A DNA stretch of 64,000 nucleotides, taken from a virus. Position numbers and translations under genes: made by a program. The notes under the pieces are model-generated. The model saw only the letters and a program-made list of their open reading frames with translations. It searched no databases and was not told the DNA's origin. Positions 2,828 to 61,476 of the stretch are shown here, one piece after another; positions within the stretch are counted from its first letter, which is position 1; every line of letters starts with the position of its first letter. The stretch is from the IMG/VR virus record IMGVR_UViG_3300032322_001011, positions 1 to 64,000 of that record; one strand, given 5' to 3'.

Positions 2828-3348
2828 TATTTAAGCCCTTTTAGGTTTCTTCTTGCTCTTATTCTGCCCTTATCACCAAGACCTGGAGCAGGTGCTTTCT
2901 TCCTTCGGCTTCCTTCGTCAAAGAATACTTCACCCTCTCCTTCATGCCCAATTCCAACAATGTGCTCACGAGGTACTAGGTATATATGCAAACGGTTGTT
3001 TTGTCCGTAGTGGTGGATACCAAACTCTTCACTATCTGGGTTACTACCTGTCCATTCAGGAAAAATTGAACCACTGCGTACTTTTGCCCCTTTAGGCACA
3101 TCACCTCTGTGGGTTACCTGAACCTGATCAGGTAGTTTAACCTCATCTCGTAGATGCTGTTGCATATTTTGGTAAGGCTCACCACGCCTATCTCTTACCT
3201 CTTGTAGATACGTTTTAGGCCACTTAGTGGTTCCGTACGACCATTGCTCCATGTCAGCCTCTGCCTCAGTACCTGCCAAATACGGAGCATGCCCCTGCTC
3301 ATAACTGTTGTAAAACTGATCCCAGTTAATACCTTCGTGCGCTGCCAT
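2827..3348 (-). CDS. putative ADP-ribosyltransferase-fold protein with N-terminal QF tag
   Basis: VTHRG, SGS and EGEV in the R-S-E order; MAAHEGINWDQF start. Confidence 0.5.
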   Translation of the reverse strand: MAAHEGINWDQFYNSYEQGHAPYLAGTEAEADMEQWSYGTTKWPKTYLQEVRDRRGEPYQNMQQHLRDEVKLPDQVQVTHRGDVPKGAKVRSGSIFPEWTGSNPDSEEFGIHHYGQNNRLHIYLVPREHIVGIGHEGEGEVFFDEGSRRKKAPAPGLGDKGRIRARRNLKGLK

Positions 3349-8618: not shown

Positions 8619-8669
8619 GGGTATTCCTTCCGTGTTGGGTTGATGCTGATCAAGCGACCAGCACCGCTC

Positions 8670-9596: not shown

Positions 9597-9639
9597 GTCG
9601 TGATCTCCTAATCACTTGGGGTTTGGGTTACTGGTCACT

Positions 9640-11124: not shown

Positions 11125-11193
11125 GATTGTCTCCTTTGTTGGGTTCTGGCATCTTAGCCACGTCAATGCCCAATTCCACTGATGGTTCAATGC

Positions 11194-12339: not shown

Positions 12340-12389
12340 GATATTGCTTCTTTCTCCGCACGTTGGCGGTGTTTGGGTTTAGGACATAG

Positions 12390-12418
12390 ATTCAATCAGA
12401 CGTGGGACTATAAAGCAA
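12390..12418 (-). promoter_or_regulatory. early promoter
   Basis: TTGCTT-17-TTGAAT upstream of DUF932. Confidence 0.55.
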
Positions 12419-12480
12419 CCTGCTCCCACGTTATTTTTTCAGCCTTATTTCGTAAGGGCGTGAGGGTGGCCGCATAAATG

Positions 12481-12510
12481 AAAAAGCACCAGCATTTCTG
12501 CTGGTGCTCT
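12481..12510 (-). terminator. intrinsic terminator, CAGCA-GAAA-TGCTG core (copy 3)
   Basis: AGCACCAGCA-GAAA-TGCTGGTGCT followed by T-run. Confidence 0.85.
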
Positions 12511-12933: not shown

Positions 12934-12962
12934 AGGATATCTGCTGGTTGGGGACATTGCAA
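12934..12962 (-). promoter_or_regulatory. early promoter
   Basis: TTGCAA-17-TATCCT. Confidence 0.7.
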
Positions 12963-14572: not shown

Positions 14573-15052
14573 TTAGTTTCCTTCCCTTTGTGACCAAATG
14601 ATTTCAATTTCTTCTCTCATTGCCCGTGTGAATGTATCCCACATATGATCACTATTCAAGCACCCTGCAAACCATTGCAGTTTTTCTTCACCTGATTTAC
14701 CTTGAACAAGTGCTGTGAAATATTCTGCTTTTGCGGCATCCTCAGATTCTTCACCTTCTGGATCATCAACAGCCATTGGAAAATAGAACTCAATGTTCTC
14801 TTCAAGTTCTTGACGAATTGCATTTGGACTAAATGCAATGCAGTTTGAGTAATTCAAATCACCGTAACCGCACCCATCAAGCATTGGTCGCAATTCTTTT
14901 CCAACTTGATCTGCAATTTCTATTGCATCACCATCGCCACCTTCAAACAGTGTTTTCACTTCTTCTGCTGTTAGTTCGTTGGTATCAACAATGACACAAT
15001 GCTCCACGTACAGGATTGTTCCTGATTGTTGGCAAATGATTATTTTGGACAT
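14573..15052 (-). CDS. early hypothetical protein (acidic)
   Basis: ATG 15052 after AAAGGAG. Confidence 0.65.
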   Translation of the reverse strand: MSKIIICQQSGTILYVEHCVIVDTNELTAEEVKTLFEGGDGDAIEIADQVGKELRPMLDGCGYGDLNYSNCIAFSPNAIRQELEENIEFYFPMAVDDPEGEESEDAAKAEYFTALVQGKSGEEKLQWFAGCLNSDHMWDTFTRAMREEIEIIWSQREGN

Positions 15053-15079
15053 TTTCTCTCCTTTGTTGTTGGGACTCTC

Positions 15080-15108
15080 ATTGAACCAGTTCGGAACACA
15101 CATTGCAA
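15080..15108 (-). promoter_or_regulatory. early promoter
   Basis: TTGCAA-17-TTCAAT. Confidence 0.55.
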
Positions 15109-15124
15109 CCTTTTTCCATAGAAA

Positions 15125-15275
15125 TGCGAAAGTCCCCAGATGCCCCTCACAGGAAAGGCATTATCTGGGGACTCAATCCGCACCGAAACCCAAATCAGTG
15201 CGGCATTACCTCTGCTATTACTCAGAGGCTCGCTGACCACCCACTCAGCGAAAGGAGGAAAGAGAGTAGGTGATC
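15125..15275 (-). ncRNA. candidate four-hairpin small RNA
   Basis: Hairpins at 15131-15173, 15178-15203, 15209-15228, 15231-15250; a G-U pair favours the minus strand. Confidence 0.55.
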
Positions 15276-15281
15276 AATCTT

Positions 15282-15497
15282 TTACCAAAGTGCTTTGACG
15301 TACTTGTGTGTTTCTTCTGCCACAGCATCTTTGTGAAATGGATCGTGCATTGATGAGCGAAGTGTTTCGGCAACATCAGATCGCACATTGGACAAAACAT
15401 TGAAATAGGCTTGACCGTATCTCCACGATGGTTTGAATTGGTGGTAATACTTATCAACACGTTCTAAAAACTCATCGTATGAAATCTTTTCTTTCAT
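15282..15497 (-). CDS. conserved small phage protein
   Basis: WRYGQAYFNVL...DPFH.D. Confidence 0.75.
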   Translation of the reverse strand: MKEKISYDEFLERVDKYYHQFKPSWRYGQAYFNVLSNVRSDVAETLRSSMHDPFHKDAVAEETHKYVKALW

Positions 15498-15928
15498 TGC
15501 ATCACCATTTGCATTGCGTACTGAACTGCTTCAAATATGTCATGGCAAGCGTACAACTTAGTTTTTGATTGAACTTCAATGACATCAAACCAAGGATTAT
15601 CGAGATATTCGTATTTCTTTTTCTCGTTTACCGCTTCGTCTAACTCTTCATCGTTGTTGATTCCCCATCTTTCTAAATCTTCCTCGTTCAGAATCAATGC
15701 TGATGTTGTGTATCCCGATTTCTTGTTTCGTGGGATGTCAATTCTCAAACTTCCCGACACCACAACTACTAACGGATTGATGTAGTCGTTGATCAACACC
15801 AATGTTTTGTTTGGTCTTCCGACATACCATTCCGCACCTGCTCGGTGAACATTTGGACTGATGTTCCACACAACATCGGGGACATTACAAAGATTTGTCC
15901 CATTGACAATGATGTTTCCAGTTTTCAT
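15494..15928 (-). CDS. early hypothetical protein
   Basis: ATGA overlaps; DNPWFDV motif. Confidence 0.65.
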   Translation of the reverse strand: MKTGNIIVNGTNLCNVPDVVWNISPNVHRAGAEWYVGRPNKTLVLINDYINPLVVVVSGSLRIDIPRNKKSGYTTSALILNEEDLERWGINNDEELDEAVNEKKKYEYLDNPWFDVIEVQSKTKLYACHDIFEAVQYAMQMVMQ

Positions 15929-16609: not shown

Positions 16610-17109
16610 TAGAAGTGGAAGTCCCAAATGACTGCGTACTGATTCTCAGGCGCATTTGCAACACGGTCACGGAAGTACTTCAAATTAGACGTGTAAGTTT
16701 CAGTATCAAACACTTGTGAATGTGAGTCATATCCTGAGTTCTCAGACATTCTAAGAACTTTCATTGCTCTGTAAGAAGCCAAGTAATCGTCACCTTCAAG
16801 TTGCTTTTCTTTTCCAATGTTTGAGATGCTAACAAGTTCAGAAATTGTTAGATCACCGACTTGTTCAAGAAGACGATCAATTTCGTTCTGCATTGACGCT
16901 TGCCACATTGCAATCTTTTTATCGAAAAGTTCAGGATTGGTTTTGTAGCAGAGAATGTTTGAACCATCAAACTCTCCATCCCATCTTCCACCAATCTCAC
17001 TCCAGTCAGACCATCGGTCTTGGGCGCAGGAATCAACAAACTTGTACGCTTTTGATTCTGCTTCTTTTCCGCTAGTTGCTTCAACTAGCAAGATGTGTCC
17101 GATATGCAT
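16609..17109 (-). CDS. conserved early phage protein
   Basis: WSDWSEIGGRWDG and C-terminal DFHF; ATG 17109 after AAGGAG. Confidence 0.75.
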   Translation of the reverse strand: MHIGHILLVEATSGKEAESKAYKFVDSCAQDRWSDWSEIGGRWDGEFDGSNILCYKTNPELFDKKIAMWQASMQNEIDRLLEQVGDLTISELVSISNIGKEKQLEGDDYLASYRAMKVLRMSENSGYDSHSQVFDTETYTSNLKYFRDRVANAPENQYAVIWDFHF

Positions 17110-17137
17110 TTCTTTCTCCTTATTGGGTTTGTGTTTT

Positions 17138-20075: not shown

Positions 20076-20513
20076 TCAGCCCTCTAACAACCTCTTGAGC
20101 AACTTTTTTAGATCGGGCAATTTATCTCCAATATTGGGGATTTCTTCAATAAGCACATATTCTGTGTCTTCCATATCATCATGTGCTTCACAACAAATGG
20201 GGCAAATGCAGCCTTGACGATAACGTGTAACAGTCCCGTGTTCAGCAAGAAATTGTTGCTTTGAGTCTTTTTGCATTGGCAATCGTTCTTGTGGTGTTAG
20301 TCCACCCCACACTCCGTATATTTCTTTCTTACCGAACGACAAACAGTCTGCCCAAACTGGACAGACATTGCAGACTTTTTTTGCTATTGCGTAATTGATT
20401 TCTGGAGTTGTCGTTTCAAACGGTGGAAACCAAATGTCTCCGTGTTTTTTTCTACATAAAGAATCTGACATCCAGTCAGGTGTTGTTATCATTCTGCTCC
20501 GTCTTCTACCCAA
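20076..20513 (-). CDS. whiB: WhiB-family transcription factor with extra C-terminal Cys motif
   Basis: WM..SLC...WFP...AKKVC..CPV..DC.......GVWGGLTPQER; HGT..RY..GC.C..C. Confidence 0.9.
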   Translation of the reverse strand: MGRRRSRMITTPDWMSDSLCRKKHGDIWFPPFETTTPEINYAIAKKVCNVCPVWADCLSFGKKEIYGVWGGLTPQERLPMQKDSKQQFLAEHGTVTRYRQGCICPICCEAHDDMEDTEYVLIEEIPNIGDKLPDLKKLLKRLLEG

Positions 20514-25172: not shown

Positions 25173-25485
25173 TATCAGTGTCCTTAAATGCTTGACCTAA
25201 TGTGTAATGAAAATCTGGATTCATTGCTAAATCCCACCGAACAGTATCATAGTCTACAGTCTTTGTTTGCTTTGGAATATGACCAAAACCAGAACCCAAT
25301 TCGTGAATTGTGGAATCTGGAAATCCCTTCAAAAGATCAAAAGTCTTTTGATGAAACAGTCTTTCATCAATTTGTCTTTTAGCATCACCAAACAACCCTT
25401 GACCAGCAGGGTGAAACTGGCGTTGATTTAGTTGCCGTTCAGCCTTCTTCTTGCGGAAATCCGCCATGTCAACGATGTCACCCAC
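25165..25485 (-). CDS. hypothetical protein with internal QF tag
   Basis: IVDMADFRKKK followed by RQLNQRQF. Confidence 0.6.
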   Translation of the reverse strand: MGDIVDMADFRKKKAERQLNQRQFHPAGQGLFGDAKRQIDERLFHQKTFDLLKGFPDSTIHELGSGFGHIPKQTKTVDYDTVRWDLAMNPDFHYTLGQAFKDTDNE

Positions 25486-25495
25486 ATTACAACCT

Positions 25496-36671: not shown

Positions 36672-38719
36672 TTTCCTTTTGCCTCCGACCAGTTAGTTGC
36701 TGCATGACACGACACTTTAAGTGTGACCCCCATAATACTCCTATCGTGACCCATCGCAGTAACTAGGGTGGACATTGCAGAGATTTCGTCTTCTTCTGGG
36801 GCAATTGCTACAAGTTCGTCATGCACTTGTACAAGCATCCTTGCCTGTGTCCCTGTAAAAGCCTTGTCCACATCAATCATGGCTTGCTTACAGATATCTG
36901 CGGCGCTTCCCTGAATAATGGCGTTAATGGCTTGGCGTTGTGCTCGTGACTGTGTAAACGAATCTTTTGATAACAACTCTGGAAGCCTACGCCTGCGACC
37001 ACTAATCGTGGACACATACCCAGAACGAACAGCCTTGGTAATAGCAATCTGCTTCCACCTAGTCAACCCAGCAAAACTCTTGTAGTAGTTATCAAGTATC
37101 GACATAGCGTGTTCTTCTTCAATACCTGTTTGTAGGGCAAGTTTCTTATGACCACCACCGTATGCGGTGAGGAAGTTAACACCTTTACCAATCTGTCGTT
37201 CTTCAGACGTTACCTCTTCTAAAGGCTTCTTAAACACGGCAGCCGCAGTAGCGGCGTGAATGTCTTCGTTGTGTTTAAAAATATGAAGCAACCGTTCATC
37301 TTGACTAAACATTGCCATGACTCGGAGTTCAATCTGGTCGTAGTCAGCCACCAACATGGTGTACTTATCTGGTGGTACAAACAAACTACGGATGGTGGAG
37401 TCTCGTGGGATGTTCTGCAAGTTTGGATTAGATGAAGACAACCGACCAGTGGCGGCTCGGTGCATGTTAAACGATGGGTGCAACTTACCGTTGTTTAACT
37501 TAGGTATAAGACCATCAACATATGTTGATTTCATCTTCCCAAGTTCTGACCATTGCAATAAAAGTGGGATCAAGGGATGCTTGCCTTTAAGTTTCTCAAG
37601 AGCATCCGCATCAACTGATGGAACTCCCTTAGCGGTCTTCTTAGTTGGCTTAAGACCTAGGCCACCTGCTCGCTTACCTGTAAACAAGTACGTTTGTTTG
37701 TCCTTATTAGAGTCTGGGTTAAACCCTGCGTAGGAGTTGTCTACAATGTCCAGTAGGCACTCACGCATCTTGGCATCCAGTTCTTTCCTCAATAACTTAA
37801 GTGAGGCTGAGTTAACTGTAATCCCTTCTTCTTCCATACACATGAGCACCCGAAGAACTTCAGACTCTTGCTGAACGGCTGGCTGTAAATCTTCAATAAG
37901 GTTTAACTTAGAACGCAACTTAGAGTAAAGCAACCATGTCCAACGAGCATCTAAGTGAACGTACTTAGCCGCAGAACTAAAAGGAACAGTGTTAATAACA
38001 GCACCAAGTTTTCCTTCCTTGGCGTAAGCATCATGCCCACCAAAGTTCTGGGCAATTAAGTTAGTCAACGAAAACGATTGTGAGTTCTCATTCTCTAGAT
38101 GTTGAAGAATCATCGTGTCCATGTATGGACCTGGTGGTAACTCTCCGTAGTACTTCTTAATAGAGCGAGCGTCAAACTTTACGTTGTGACCAACCTTTAC
38201 AAGGTCGCTAAAGAATATTGGGCGCAACGCTTCAAAAACTTCATAGCGAGATAACTGCGCTGGTGGGTCTGAATAGACACCTGGAATCACATACTTGGCT
38301 TTAGCCATTGACTCCTTACCGCTTGCTGTTACCTTGCGATATCCAGATGGTGGGATGGTTGTACCGTCACCACGTTCTTCTGGAATAACTATCTCACCAA
38401 GCAAATGACCCATAGGTATAGCCCATGAGTGACCGTAGGTAGCAATGCCAATCCAAAACACCTCGTTACGTAGAGGGTCTAGCGCTAAATCTTTTAGGTA
38501 TCGTTGGCGAATTGCTTCCGTTGATGAGGCAACAATTGAATCCGTAGGGTTCTTGAGCGTTGCAATGTGATCTTTACACTCTTTCAAAAAAAGTGTATTG
38601 ATATCATCATGGCGCTCAATAACCCCACGGGACTCAATGTCAAAGGCAAATTCCCCTGCCTTTGTAACTATCTCAACAAGTTTGTGCAACTCTTCAACGG
38701 TGTGAACCGTCTGTTGCAT
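36668..38719 (-). CDS. polA: family A DNA polymerase (3'-5' exonuclease + polymerase)
   Basis: FDIES, GHNVKFD, TGRLSSSNPNLQN, DYDQIELR, K..NF..AYG, VHDE. Confidence 0.95.
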   Translation of the reverse strand: MQQTVHTVEELHKLVEIVTKAGEFAFDIESRGVIERHDDINTLFLKECKDHIATLKNPTDSIVASSTEAIRQRYLKDLALDPLRNEVFWIGIATYGHSWAIPMGHLLGEIVIPEERGDGTTIPPSGYRKVTASGKESMAKAKYVIPGVYSDPPAQLSRYEVFEALRPIFFSDLVKVGHNVKFDARSIKKYYGELPPGPYMDTMILQHLENENSQSFSLTNLIAQNFGGHDAYAKEGKLGAVINTVPFSSAAKYVHLDARWTWLLYSKLRSKLNLIEDLQPAVQQESEVLRVLMCMEEEGITVNSASLKLLRKELDAKMRECLLDIVDNSYAGFNPDSNKDKQTYLFTGKRAGGLGLKPTKKTAKGVPSVDADALEKLKGKHPLIPLLLQWSELGKMKSTYVDGLIPKLNNGKLHPSFNMHRAATGRLSSSNPNLQNIPRDSTIRSLFVPPDKYTMLVADYDQIELRVMAMFSQDERLLHIFKHNEDIHAATAAAVFKKPLEEVTSEERQIGKGVNFLTAYGGGHKKLALQTGIEEEHAMSILDNYYKSFAGLTRWKQIAITKAVRSGYVSTISGRRRRLPELLSKDSFTQSRAQRQAINAIIQGSAADICKQAMIDVDKAFTGTQARMLVQVHDELVAIAPEEDEISAMSTLVTAMGHDRSIMGVTLKVSCHAATNWSEAKGK

Positions 38720-46156: not shown

Positions 46157-46158
46157 AC

Positions 46159-46187
46159 TTGTCTCCTCTTGTTTGTTGTGTTACGCT
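46159..46187 (+). promoter_or_regulatory. plus-strand promoter for antisense small RNA
   Basis: TTGTCT-17-TACGCT with extended TGn. Confidence 0.55.
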
Positions 46188-46193
46188 TTGTTT

Positions 46194-46302
46194 ACGGAAG
46201 GAAACCTTCATCCTTCCTGCCATTCCGCTCCCCTTTCTGGCGGAATTGGCTTTATGGGATTGAGGGCGGTGGGTTTTTCTCTTCTTTGCCCACCGCTCTC
46301 TC
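46194..46302 (+). ncRNA. candidate three-hairpin antisense RNA
   Basis: Stems GGAAGGA/TCCTTCC, GCCATTCCGCT/GGCGGAATTGGC, GAGGGCGGTGGG/CCCACCGCTCTC; G-U pairs only on plus strand. Confidence 0.6.
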
Positions 46303-46875
46303 CTATAACTGTTTGGTTTTGATAGACCCGTCAGAATAGACGGTAATCTGCATTACAGGCTCTACAACGCTCAATACTTTCTCCATGCGTGGGGTAGACA
46401 CCACCTCTGGTTTTGGTGCATCCTGGGGCTTCCTAGGGGCCTCTGGGGTGCTATCTACGGTCAGTGGGGCAAGACCATTGGTCAACTCCAAGCAACTCAG
46501 GTTGCGGTCATGCGCTCCAAAAACTAAACTCTGAGTAAGGTCTGTTGCTTCCTTAGTCTCATCTTCGTCATACAGGACAAGGACTGCTAGTGAATTCTCT
46601 GAACGAGTTTGGGCTTGAAAAAAAGCGTCTTCTACAAGGCTGTCTACCTTGACAATTGAATCGGAAGCCTGACCAACTGCTGGGGGGACTTTTCCAGATT
46701 CTGTATAGACCGTGAACTTTGCACTGTGGTCAATCATCCAGTCAAGGACTCGTGCCTGACCTGCGGTTGGTTTACCTGTCCACAAGATGTGAAACCAACT
46801 TCCTTTAAGGTCACTAAGACCAGATTCAATTACGTTTGCTGATGCGTTACCAGTACCACCGATTAAGTAATCCAT
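46303..46875 (-). CDS. hypothetical protein
   Basis: 190 aa, alpha/beta N-terminus; AAGGA RBS. Confidence 0.65.
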   Translation of the reverse strand: MDYLIGGTGNASANVIESGLSDLKGSWFHILWTGKPTAGQARVLDWMIDHSAKFTVYTESGKVPPAVGQASDSIVKVDSLVEDAFFQAQTRSENSLAVLVLYDEDETKEATDLTQSLVFGAHDRNLSCLELTNGLAPLTVDSTPEAPRKPQDAPKPEVVSTPRMEKVLSVVEPVMQITVYSDGSIKTKQL

Positions 46876-58106: not shown

Positions 58107-58134
58107 TTATTCTCCTAGTTATTAAATATGTTAT

Positions 58135-58779: not shown

Positions 58780-58787
58780 GATTTCTC

Positions 58788-60335
58788 CTAGGCGTTAGTA
58801 GTTACGGATGAACCACCAGTCCACTGACTGATAGTAATTACAATGAATTCAGCAGGAGACTGCAAAGCGACTCCGATAGTTACGTTTACTTTTCCGTCTT
58901 CAATATCTGCTTGCGTGTTGTTTGTTGAGTTACAGATTACGTAGAATGCTTCGCTAGTCGTCTTACCTTTAAGACCCCCAGTTCCCCAGAAGGTGGTAAG
59001 AAGAGCCGAAACACGAACAGTGATGTCTGACCACAAACGCTGATCGTTTGGCTCAAACAAAGCAAACTGTGTCTTAGCCTTAACAGCATCCTTAAGGTAG
59101 TTCAACGAACGGCGAACCGTGATGTACTTTTCAGAAGTGTTACGGGCAAGTGTACGTGAACCATTGATGATTACACCAACACCAGGTACTACGTTAAACA
59201 AGTTAATTTGACTTTCCTTGTAAACAGTTCCTTGCTGAGTCTCGGTGAGGTTTCCAACAAGACCGTATACGTTACGGATGTCCAATGAGTAACCAGCAGG
59301 TGCTTTTGAAACACCACGGGCGATCTCTGAGCGAACCATTGCACCAACTACTGCACCACCAGCATAGGTGTTGCGGATTGCAGCAGCACCAGTCTTCTTA
59401 GGATCAAACATCTTAAGTGCTGGTCCGTAAACTGCTGCGTAACTTGACTTGGTGTATCCCGATACAGCACTCTGCAATTGGTCTGCTGTTGTAGCGGTAA
59501 GTGGGGTGTCAACAATAAGCATTGAGTTTCCACGTGTTTGCATTACCGTAATGGCATTGTTAATAATTGTTGATGAGGTTTGACCCACCAAGTTAAACAA
59601 TAGTCCAGATGTAATTGTTTCATGAGACTCAACAGCGTTTTCCCAGTCAGTTGCGTCAATTGCGCCTCCACCCTCAGAACCGTTTGTAAAGGATGTTGTT
59701 GCAACATAGTCGTTAGCAGCAATCCCAGTTACGGTAAGGGCGGCTCCAGCAGCAACAGTTGCTACTGTTGATGCACTTACGTATGATGAGTAAAGATCAA
59801 GAACTGTATCAATGTACCGAACATTTTCTGGATCAACGGACAGGTTGTTCCAGCGTTCTACTTCAACACTGTTCAACTTTACAGTAAGGGTAAACAACGA
59901 ATCCTTGGTGACCTTTGGGGTTGTTTCTGGGGTAGTTAATGTTTCTGGATCAAAGGTGTAATCAACAGTTAGGTCGTTACCCCATGAACCTGCTGATTTA
60001 GTTACCAACAGAACAAGGTTTCCAAGACTTCCACCAGTTGGCGTGGCAGTCAATGCACTCTGTGCAATTGTTGCGGTTGCGTCAATAACACGAGTAACGT
60101 ATGCAGTTTGACCACCGTTAGCGAAGTAGTGGTAAACGGCGTAACCTAGATCATAGGCATTGCTCAAATCACCGAACAAACTTGTGTACTGGTTCCATGA
60201 CGTAATCAGTGTTGGGGTGGTCGGACCACGGTCTGCAAGACCAACAAATGCAGCAGCAGTTGGTCCGTTGGTTGTTTGAATGTTAGTTGCAAACGTACCT
60301 TCCTGTACGTATACTCCTGGGCGTTCGTATGCCAT
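58788..60335 (-). CDS. contractile tail sheath protein
   Basis: RPGVYVQE, YFANGG, KAPAG, VRR, FEPND, PAEFI. Confidence 0.95.
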   Translation of the reverse strand: MAYERPGVYVQEGTFATNIQTTNGPTAAAFVGLADRGPTTPTLITSWNQYTSLFGDLSNAYDLGYAVYHYFANGGQTAYVTRVIDATATIAQSALTATPTGGSLGNLVLLVTKSAGSWGNDLTVDYTFDPETLTTPETTPKVTKDSLFTLTVKLNSVEVERWNNLSVDPENVRYIDTVLDLYSSYVSASTVATVAAGAALTVTGIAANDYVATTSFTNGSEGGGAIDATDWENAVESHETITSGLLFNLVGQTSSTIINNAITVMQTRGNSMLIVDTPLTATTADQLQSAVSGYTKSSYAAVYGPALKMFDPKKTGAAAIRNTYAGGAVVGAMVRSEIARGVSKAPAGYSLDIRNVYGLVGNLTETQQGTVYKESQINLFNVVPGVGVIINGSRTLARNTSEKYITVRRSLNYLKDAVKAKTQFALFEPNDQRLWSDITVRVSALLTTFWGTGGLKGKTTSEAFYVICNSTNNTQADIEDGKVNVTIGVALQSPAEFIVITISQWTGGSSVTTNA

Positions 60336-60370
60336 TATTGCTCCTAAAAGTTAGAGGGAATTAAAAAAAC

Positions 60371-61057: not shown

Positions 61058-61476
61058 ATTCCGCCGTTTGTTCCTGTGAGTTTATCTAGGTCTTTGTTGA
61101 TGCGCTTGGTCAAACGGGCAGCACCTTGAATGCATTGTTTACGCAGTATTGACCTAGCAGGGGGGCCAAACTCTAAAGCCGTGGCTTTTTGTCTAGATTC
61201 TCCAGTTACCTTATAGGAAAAGGTTTTATCTGATTTGTTGTAAGTGATATTAAAGTCATTTACTAATTCAGCATACTGGGCTTCATCGGTAATCAAGGCT
61301 TCTTTGGCTACCTTGACTTCAGCCTCAACTGCTCGGTTTACAATCTCGCCTAAGTATTCTTCTAGATTTAGCATTAAATCACCGTAAAAAGCAATGGGTG
61401 AAGCGGTTCCCTGAACGTACTTATGCGTAGCAGAACTAAGGTTAATCTTGGTTTTAGGTTTGCCAGCCATAGGCAC
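61054..61476 (-). CDS. neck/tail completion protein
   Basis: LEFG motif; position. Confidence 0.5.
   Translation of the reverse strand: MPMAGKPKTKINLSSATHKYVQGTASPIAFYGDLMLNLEEYLGEIVNRAVEAEVKVAKEALITDEAQYAELVNDFNITYNKSDKTFSYKVTGESRQKATALEFGPPARSILRKQCIQGAARLTKRINKDLDKLTGTNGGI

Follow-up and report, generated by a model that had tools for sequence, protein, structure and literature searches.

Comparative analysis indicates that the minus strand of the genome of an uncultured phage encodes a real, conserved and structured RNA at 15126-15276 of the window, that is, of the whole 64,000-nt stretch of DNA analysed here, to which all coordinates refer unless another sequence is named. We propose that this RNA, derived from the 3′ end of an operon transcript, pairs with phage gene leaders that carry a short common tag and represses their translation, as the c4 and CcsR RNAs do; in our judgement the proposal stands at even chances of being right. 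To our knowledge, hardly any regulatory RNAs are known from phages of Actinobacteria, and the RNA described here falls into no Rfam family.

The phage and the RNA locus

The window covers positions 1-64,000 of a linear IMG/VR virus record (IMGVR_UViG_3300032322_001011) that is 84.7 kb long and 89% complete. Its genes, nearly all of them on the minus strand, encode tail sheath, tube and baseplate proteins as well as DNA polymerase, helicases and a replication initiator. A WhiB-family transcription factor is encoded at 20076-20513 (Pfam E 2.8e-13), and since WhiB-type proteins are, as far as we know, confined to Actinobacteria and the phages thereof, the host is likely a member of this phylum.

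The RNA occupies a 230-nt gap between a 71-aa ORF and a 159-aa ORF, the latter starting at 15052, and every neighbouring gene also lies on the minus strand. The protein encoded by the upstream 71-aa ORF matched no Pfam family (DUF1127 included), no solved relative and no named Atlas cluster. The order of 71-aa gene and RNA is found in all close relatives and also in L233 and L234, two contigs of the sister lineage described below, and the gene for a 144-aa protein (15494-15928) lies two genes upstream of the RNA. The elements of the locus, in the direction of transcription, are as follows.

15282-15497, minus strand: upstream 71-aa ORF, phrog_8466 (function unassigned), with the TAA stop at 15282-15284, 5 nt before hairpin 1
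15234-15276, minus strand: hairpin 1, a 13-bp stem (15264-15276/15234-15246) with a 17-nt pyrimidine loop (15247-15263) holding UUCCUCCUUUCG
15250-15258, minus strand: CCUCCUUUC in the hairpin-1 loop, the same as 9 nt of the 16S rRNA 3′ tail (anti-SD)
15230-15233, minus strand: junction helix P1, 5′ strand GCGA, which pairs with 15126-15129 and closes hairpins 2-4
15208-15229, minus strand: hairpin 2, a 7-bp stem with the loop AGUAAUAG (15215-15222)
15178-15203, minus strand: hairpin 3, a 9-bp stem with the loop UUUGGGUU (15187-15194), the complement of the leader tag AACCCAA(A)
15130-15174, minus strand: hairpin 4, with an invariant outer stem CCCCAG/CUGGGG, a covarying inner stem and the apical loop YCCYWGUGAG
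15126-15129, minus strand: junction helix P1, 3′ strand UCGC, backed by covariation
15113-15124, minus strand: small dyad UUUC-UAUG-GAAA, either hairpin 5 of the RNA or a palindromic DNA site ahead of the promoter, the RNA and DNA roles being indistinguishable
15080-15108, minus strand: promoter-like site for the downstream genes, with -35 TTGCAA (15103-15108), a 17-nt spacer, TGn (15086-15088) and -10 TTCAAT (15080-15085)
15050-15079, minus strand: leader and start of the 159-aa gene, with CCCAAC, then AAAGGAG, then ATG (15050-15052)

The search of genome contigs for a host gave a single match, a 22-kb contig (L235, JBDNFI010000049.1) from a MAG labelled Cyclobacteriaceae, in which the genes after a homolog of the 71-aa gene encode a small membrane protein and a WhiB-like protein, and from which the RNA is absent. 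Because of the WhiB-like gene and the absence of the RNA, this is probably a phage contig mis-binned into that MAG. WhiB-like genes follow the 71-aa gene in a whole set of distant relatives without the RNA (L030-L036, L043 and L235).

Folding, conservation and strand of the RNA

The minus strand of the locus folds with an MFE of -82.4 kcal/mol (z -6.25), and 0 of 200 shuffled sequences folded as well. The element is carried by nine viral contigs and several metagenome contigs, always after the same gene, and is single-copy in the genome of the window and in two sister genomes (one of 98 kb, complete with direct terminal repeats, and one of 92 kb). Two of the homologs, L027 and L032, are strongly diverged, and their independent folds gave an architecture matching that of the window's RNA, which is known in this way from three diverged forms. 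In an alignment of ten sequences 98.4% of the cells were paired, compared with 39-47% when the partners were slid. Two-sided (compensatory) changes were found in 28 of the 54 pairs among these ten homologs, and the observed values were reached by none of 500 shuffles. The multi-hairpin RNA proposed for this region in a preliminary description is accordingly upheld in its structure by folding energy and covariation, with the exception of its first hairpin, which was drawn wrongly (see below).

The plus strand folds well too (z -5.98). The alignment contains 46 G-U cells in 15 pair columns and 3 A-C cells, which would be G-U on the other strand, in 2 columns. As the G-U cells far exceed the A-C cells, the folded strand is the minus one, in agreement with the preliminary description, whose argument for this strand, a U-G pair in the stem 15178-15203, is indeed there. 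The same description offered as an alternative a plus-strand sponge RNA, whose displayed GGA or SD-like motifs would capture a CsrA-type protein or 30S subunits. Such an RNA could draw on the good fold of that strand and would expose AAAGGAGGAAAG in a loop, but reading the plus strand turns the 15 G-U pair columns into A-C mismatches and lowers pairing from 98.4% to 90.1%, no GGA stands in a plus-strand loop save one AGGAGG, and the neighbouring genes are all on the minus strand; we find this explanation scarcely credible.

A protein-coding ORF was ruled out, as indels break the frame and the variation tracks base pairs and not codons. The indels among homologs comprise paired 1-nt indels in hairpin 4, a 3-nt one in the loop of hairpin 1 and, in L027, the loss of the entire 26-nt hairpin 3; on the same grounds of broken frames the small ORFs at 15103-15273 (plus strand) and 15040-15240 (minus strand) were discarded. 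The junction nucleotides vary among the homologs, which argues against a ligand-binding core.

Searches for known relatives of the RNA were negative. Rfam models, run on the window at the gathering threshold and on 14950-15400 at E up to 10, gave only a chance match to mir-277, and ARAGORN found 0 tRNA or tmRNA genes in the window. BLAST against GenBank phages in near and distant modes gave no match, and among the sequencing runs listed as containing the sequence none was an RNA run. Pattern scans for further members yielded none that were new and none in the genome collection; another pattern scan returned mostly an unrelated terminator family, and among the matches listed by a further one those examined were mostly chance 14-mer matches. 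P1 with hairpins 2-4 (15126-15233) has a cloverleaf-like outline, in which the anti-tag loop sits on the arm at the anticodon position; the corresponding part is a three-way junction in L027 and L032.

Elements of the RNA

The invariant parts of the RNA are the core of the hairpin-1 loop, the hairpin-3 loop UUUGGGUU, the outer stem and apical loop of hairpin 4 and the sequence after hairpin 4. In hairpin 1 two-sided changes affect 9 of the 12 pairs, and L027 and L032 have a wholly different stem with the loop core kept. The preliminary description had folded this part as a hairpin CGCUGA/UCAGCG with the loop GUGGGUGG, a pairing that exists in the window only and is unconserved; covariation backs the stem 15264-15276/15234-15246 and places in its loop the CU-rich stretch that had been taken for a free 5′ tail (the 5′ string quoted there also contained one U too many). 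The remaining loops, AGUAAUAG of hairpin 2, UUUGGGUU of hairpin 3 and the apical pyrimidine/GUGAG loop of hairpin 4, are present as had been described.

The core CCUCCUUUC of the hairpin-1 loop is invariant in nine of the ten homologs, with CUCCUUUC in the tenth (L015), and has no second exact copy within the window. It is complementary to the SD GAAAGGAGG/AAAGGAG, and Actinobacteria have the same 16S 3′ tail as the one that it copies. This tail, GAUCACCUCCUUUCU, has been reported for many bacteria (PMC6288834). We considered whether the hairpin-1 loop might pair within the molecule with GGAAAAAGG, on the 3′ side of hairpin 4, but dropped the idea, as the complementarity proved inconsistent when inspected by eye.

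All four pairs of P1 are compensated, the helix reading AUGUGAA/UUCACAU in L027 and CACAGAAG/CUUCUGUG in L032. The loop of hairpin 2 is poorly conserved (GGUUUAGG in L016, AGUGGUUG in L027). In hairpin 3 five of the nine pairs are compensated and the loop is invariant in eight homologs; this hairpin is absent from L027, and in L032 one different hairpin replaces hairpins 2 and 3. Hairpin 4 has an 11-bp GC-rich stem followed by the U-rich CUUUCGCAUUUCUAU and is terminator-like; the U-rich stretch has 8 U in 15 with no run of 5, and the site was not picked up by a consensus scan. A search for targets of the hairpin-4 loop gave a 10-nt match at 61080 with nothing orthologous in the two sister genomes, and we treated it as chance. 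In L016 the small dyad at 15113-15124 has undergone a single compensatory change, and in L032 its loop is UCGG.

Strong folding is also seen in another intergenic region of the window, 46157-46310, upstream of the replication-initiator gene (start 46156), with z -5.9 on the minus strand and -7.3 on the plus strand. Its mRNA strand has three purine-rich loops, of which GAAAGGGG would allow 8 nt of pairing with the CCUCCUUUC loop, and its plus strand has pyrimidine-rich ones.

The probable operon end and the promoter-like site downstream

The promoter-like site at 15080-15108 was not picked up by a consensus scan. The arrangement GTTGC(A/T)-N17-TGnTTGAAT is also found upstream of DUF932 in all relatives, and L063 has TTGTAA-18-TACAAT at the equivalent position. 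Since a promoter-like site follows the RNA and the stop codon lies 5 nt before hairpin 1, the RNA is most simply, and probably, the 3′ end of an operon transcript starting near 17109; no separate promoter for the RNA is evident at the locus. A comparable boundary occurs at about 12385-12510 (minus strand), where a canonical terminator, GCACCAGCA-GAAA-UGCUGGUGC with UUUUUCAUUU, is followed by the promoter GTTGCT-17-TGaTTGAAT for DUF932; this terminator and promoter are kept in all relatives, the promoter being of the type seen after the RNA.

The RNA might be the structure of an operon 3′ end and nothing else, i.e. a terminator with hairpins that guard against 3′ exonucleases and insulate the operon from the next promoter, with no base-pairing targets. 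Its location between a stop codon and a promoter-like site, the GC-rich hairpin 4 with a U-rich stretch after it, the plain CCCCAG...CUGGGG hairpin with a U-run that precedes the same promoter motif at the equivalent position in L055 and L063, and the canonical terminator with the same promoter type before DUF932 would all fit such a role. However, a terminator needs neither invariant loops of 8-17 nt above freely covarying stems nor a junction helix, and we hold this explanation to be unlikely as the whole account. It is compatible with the repressor RNA that we favour, in that termination could simply make the 3′ end of that RNA.

Control in cis was considered as well: on read-through transcripts the hairpin-1 loop could pair with the SD of the next gene, or the structure could modulate read-through, in either case with one gene being controlled. 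Such control would agree with the conservation, alongside the RNA, of the leader that contains CCCAAC and AAAGGAG, even where the gene behind this leader differs. Yet a promoter stands between the RNA and that leader, so most downstream transcripts would be without the RNA, and perfect complements of the anti-tag loop are present in other leaders 3-7 kb off. Moreover, in L027, L233 and L234 the ATG follows 6 nt after the -10 of the downstream promoter (L027:1880-1900; L233 and L234, about 3310-3325), and the downstream genes there are apparently leaderless; leaderless mRNAs are a common trait in Actinobacteria. We judge a purely cis-acting RNA to be quite improbable.

The word TTGYAATGT is present in 16 copies in the window, on both strands, against 2.4 expected (0 of 100 shuffles), e.g. 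at 15100-15108, 12954-12962, 25484-25492 and 38560-38568. Its minus-strand copies cluster at 10-25 kb and no longer motif is visible around them; some copies are TAATG stop/start overlaps and others stand at -35 or -10-like positions.

A tag and an extended SD in the leaders

Six leaders in the genome of the window contain AACCCAA, the word complementary to the hairpin-3 loop, where 1.3 would be expected; they belong to the genes starting at 17109, 12339, 11124, 9596, 8618 and 51214, five of which lie within 8 kb of the RNA. The word ranks first in leaders among 35 words of the same composition and is the commonest leader 7-mer outside SD and A-rich words. The sister genomes have 3 and 5 leaders with this word where 0.9 and 1.1 would be expected, and each of these leaders lies near the RNA. 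Over the whole genome AACCCAAA occurs 10 times against 4.4 expected, and in the two sister genomes the reversed word is equally frequent; because the word is not enriched over its reverse genome-wide, only the leader excess was counted, and we take the genome-wide excess to be probably compositional and that within leaders to be real. The tag often stands a few nucleotides after -10-like hexamers, near predicted 5′ ends, and is kept in orthologous leaders despite diverged flanks.

17123-17129, minus strand: AACCCAA within the leader of a gene (start 17109) that is probably the first in the RNA's operon; two tandem copies in relatives
12372-12379, minus strand: tag AACCCAAA in the DUF932 leader, a few nucleotides after the predicted -10; kept in 4 of 6 relatives
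11139-11145, minus strand: tag AACCCAA in the SNF2 helicase leader, directly before the SD AAAGGAG; kept in relatives with different flanks
9622-9629, minus strand: AACCCAAA, the tag of the DUF6011 leader, with the -10-like hexamer TAGAGT 7 nt ahead of it
8635-8641, minus strand: AACCCAA within the leader of a gene (start 8618); present only in the window and L022

The extended SD AAAGGAG is likewise local, all leaders that carry it (4/4, 5/5 and 4/4 in the three genomes) lying within 10 kb of the RNA; the leader of the 159-aa gene is one of the four in the genome of the window. The preliminary description had claimed that unpaired parts of the RNA are complementary to early leaders. This is borne out for two invariant loops, which match the tag AACCCAA and the SD AAAGGAG, and AACCCAAA was indeed found in the DUF932 and DUF6011 leaders; it fails for AAAGGAGG as an exact target, a sequence whose sole occurrence in the window is the element's own complement, the leaders having only the shorter AAAGGAG.

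Two ribosome-binding contexts can be discerned in the genome, (AACCCAAC)...AAAGGAGA for genes near the RNA and YUA(A)GGAG without tag for structural genes (e.g. 58780-58800, 58107-58125 and 60336-60355).

When duplex energies were computed for all leaders, the hairpin-3 loop gave no general shift, and the hairpin-1 loop performed better than with the coding background, but not better than shuffled pyrimidine loops. This tells against a general silencing of SD-led mRNAs, as had been suggested, and means that any specificity must come from the tag together with the extended SD. Nor are the late mRNAs leaderless, as the same suggestion supposed: the tail sheath, tube and baseplate(-hub) genes have SDs, e.g. 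UAGGAG and UAAGGAG. These late-gene SDs are without the tag and the AAA extension, so that selectivity could still be possible.

A differently built RNA in a sister lineage

A sister lineage, here called B, was found via the 144-aa protein and consists of L063, L136, L230-L232, L233 and L234, of which L063, L232, L233 and L234 were used for the comparison of RNAs and leaders. At the equivalent locus, before the same promoter motif, lineage B has a differently built RNA. Its hairpin a covaries and has U-G wobbles on the gene strand. Hairpin b reads CCUAC-UUUGGUUG-GUAGG or CCUAC-UGUGGUUG-GUAGG. A terminator hairpin, with UAUCCUUUCAGG in its loop and the pyrimidine loop UCCUUUC, is followed by the tail UUUUGUGUU. 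AACCCAA is absent from all lineage-B DNA examined. The single commonest leader 7-mer of L063 is CAACCAA, found in 8 of its 28 leaders where 0.9 would be expected, in most cases with AAAGGAG or GAAAGGA immediately after it, and the lineage-B loop UUUGGUUG matches this tag of its own. The pairs are UUGGGUU with AACCCAA in the lineage of the window and UUGGUUG with CAACCAA in lineage B, and the RNA of each lineage also has a pyrimidine loop matching its SDs. Loop and tag thus differ together between lineages, in a comparison of two lineages whose RNAs are unalignable; for one lineage, a 170-nt RNA would contain the complement of a particular 7-mer by chance in about 1% of cases.

The lineage-B data bear on two alternatives to a leader-pairing RNA. 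That its pyrimidine loop lies on the terminator hairpin itself would suit an operon 3′ end structure, which on the other hand has no need of loops complementary to whichever word is commonest in the leaders of a lineage. The second alternative is a protein decoy, in which the hairpin-1 loop mimics the 16S tail and titrates a ribonuclease toxin, a ribosomal protein or an initiation factor, not mRNAs. Such a decoy would make sense of the 9 nt that the loop has in common with the conserved 16S tail, and of the hairpin-4 stem and loop, conserved as they are and with no RNA target; it leaves unexplained the complementarity of hairpin-3 loop and tag and the change in lineage B, and annotation of the neighbouring proteins revealed no candidate partner encoded beside the RNA. 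We regard the decoy as very unlikely.

Proposed mode of action

According to the model that we favour, the upstream small-gene operon would give rise to an RNA of about 150-165 nt, the 3′ end of its transcript, ending at hairpin 4/P1 with a U-rich tail and possibly trimmed out of the operon transcript. This RNA would consist of hairpin 1 and the junction-closed set of three hairpins, with two loops held constant while the stems mutate freely. The hairpin-1 loop CCUCCUUUC, being a copy of the 16S tail, would pair with the extended SD AAAGGAG, and the hairpin-3 loop UUUGGGUU with AACCCAA(A) just 5′ of the SD, in five or six genes within 8 kb. The targets would include the gene that opens the RNA's own operon, together with DUF932, DUF6011 and the SNF2 helicase. 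With both loops seated on tag and SD the ribosome-binding site would be covered, and the accumulating RNA would lower the translation of the local gene set and perhaps invite cleavage by an RNase. That the RNA is made and stable, that it pairs in the cell and that it represses rather than activates are what we infer from sequence comparison.

Some observations weigh against the model. L027 has ACCCAAAC in two leaders though hairpin 3 is absent, from which it follows that the tag has, or also has, a role independent of the hairpin-3 loop. Hairpin 3 is kept in the G001 lineage, as judged from locus L019 (a contig whose RNA sequence is identical), and yet the tag is gone from its DUF932 leader. 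Taken alone, the hairpin-1 loop would give no selectivity, since its pairing with SDs is no different from that of 16S. The anti-tag hairpin of lineage B (hairpin b) has no covariation support, its loop is partly paired in the MFE fold, and the joint change of loop and tag is seen in two lineages only, with RNAs that do not align.

If the loops pair with the tagged leaders, the timing of translation for an early-gene block (DUF932, SNF2 helicase, DUF6011 and others) would be set by a single small RNA. A more far-reaching idea, which we advance tentatively and think possible without leaning towards it, is a private translation code, with a lineage-specific leader tag placed by a strong SD and one RNA showing both an anti-tag and a copy of the 16S tail. 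Were this true, one transcript would switch a whole regulon, and the concerted change of tag and loop would insulate one lineage from another. The loop/tag pairs of the two lineages would make an orthogonal pair, already at hand for testing, and could become parts of translation switches in Gram-positive hosts.

Comparison with known systems

The c4 antisense RNA of phages P1 and P7 is a hairpin-rich RNA that is cut from an operon transcript by RNase P to give a small stable RNA. The RNA described here is like c4 (Rfam RF01695) in being phage-encoded and probably part of an operon transcript, with two loops facing two short sites around a ribosome-binding site of the same phage. As in c4, the loops are complementary to ribosome-binding regions of the own phage (six leaders for hairpin 3, AAAGGAG for hairpin 1). 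It differs from c4 in giving no match to the covariance model, either at the gathering threshold in the window or at E up to 10 in 14950-15400, in being about twice as long, and in having a junction-closed multi-hairpin domain at an operon 3′ end before a promoter; its candidate sites are in five or six separate leaders, whereas c4 has them in one.

The GC-rich hairpin and U-rich stretch at an operon end just before a promoter recall an intrinsic terminator, from which the phage RNA is set apart by four more covarying helices, invariant loops and an interrupted U stretch.

In the likely host phylum, 6C RNA (RF01066) resembles the phage RNA in facing purine-rich ribosome-binding sites with C-rich loops, but 6C has two hairpins with loops of six or more C, whereas the phage RNA has loops of mixed U and C, another architecture and no Rfam match. 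The 6C RNA of Actinobacteria binds ribosome-binding sites via its C-rich loops with no chaperone (PMC6486639).

The Cuckoo, CcsR and NfeR RNAs of Alphaproteobacteria share with the phage RNA the anti-SD hairpin loops and, in the case of CcsR, a 71-aa gene on the 5′ side; the source of the CcsR RNAs is the 3′ UTR of this gene for a small protein (PMC8034643). The Cuckoo/CcsR RNAs, encoded in cellular genomes, have CCUCCUCCC in every loop, whereas the phage RNA has CCUCCUUUC in one loop only, its second loop being antisense to a private tag, and has no Rfam match. They adjoin a DUF1127 gene, whereas the 71-aa neighbour here is without a DUF1127 match and is assigned to phrog_8466 only.

Since Rfam matches are absent and the defining loop motifs are lacking, the phage RNA is, on the sequence data, a member of none of the c4, CcsR/cuckoo and 6C families. 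The anti-SD-loop design of cellular sRNAs would here be in the service of a phage, with an added specificity element.
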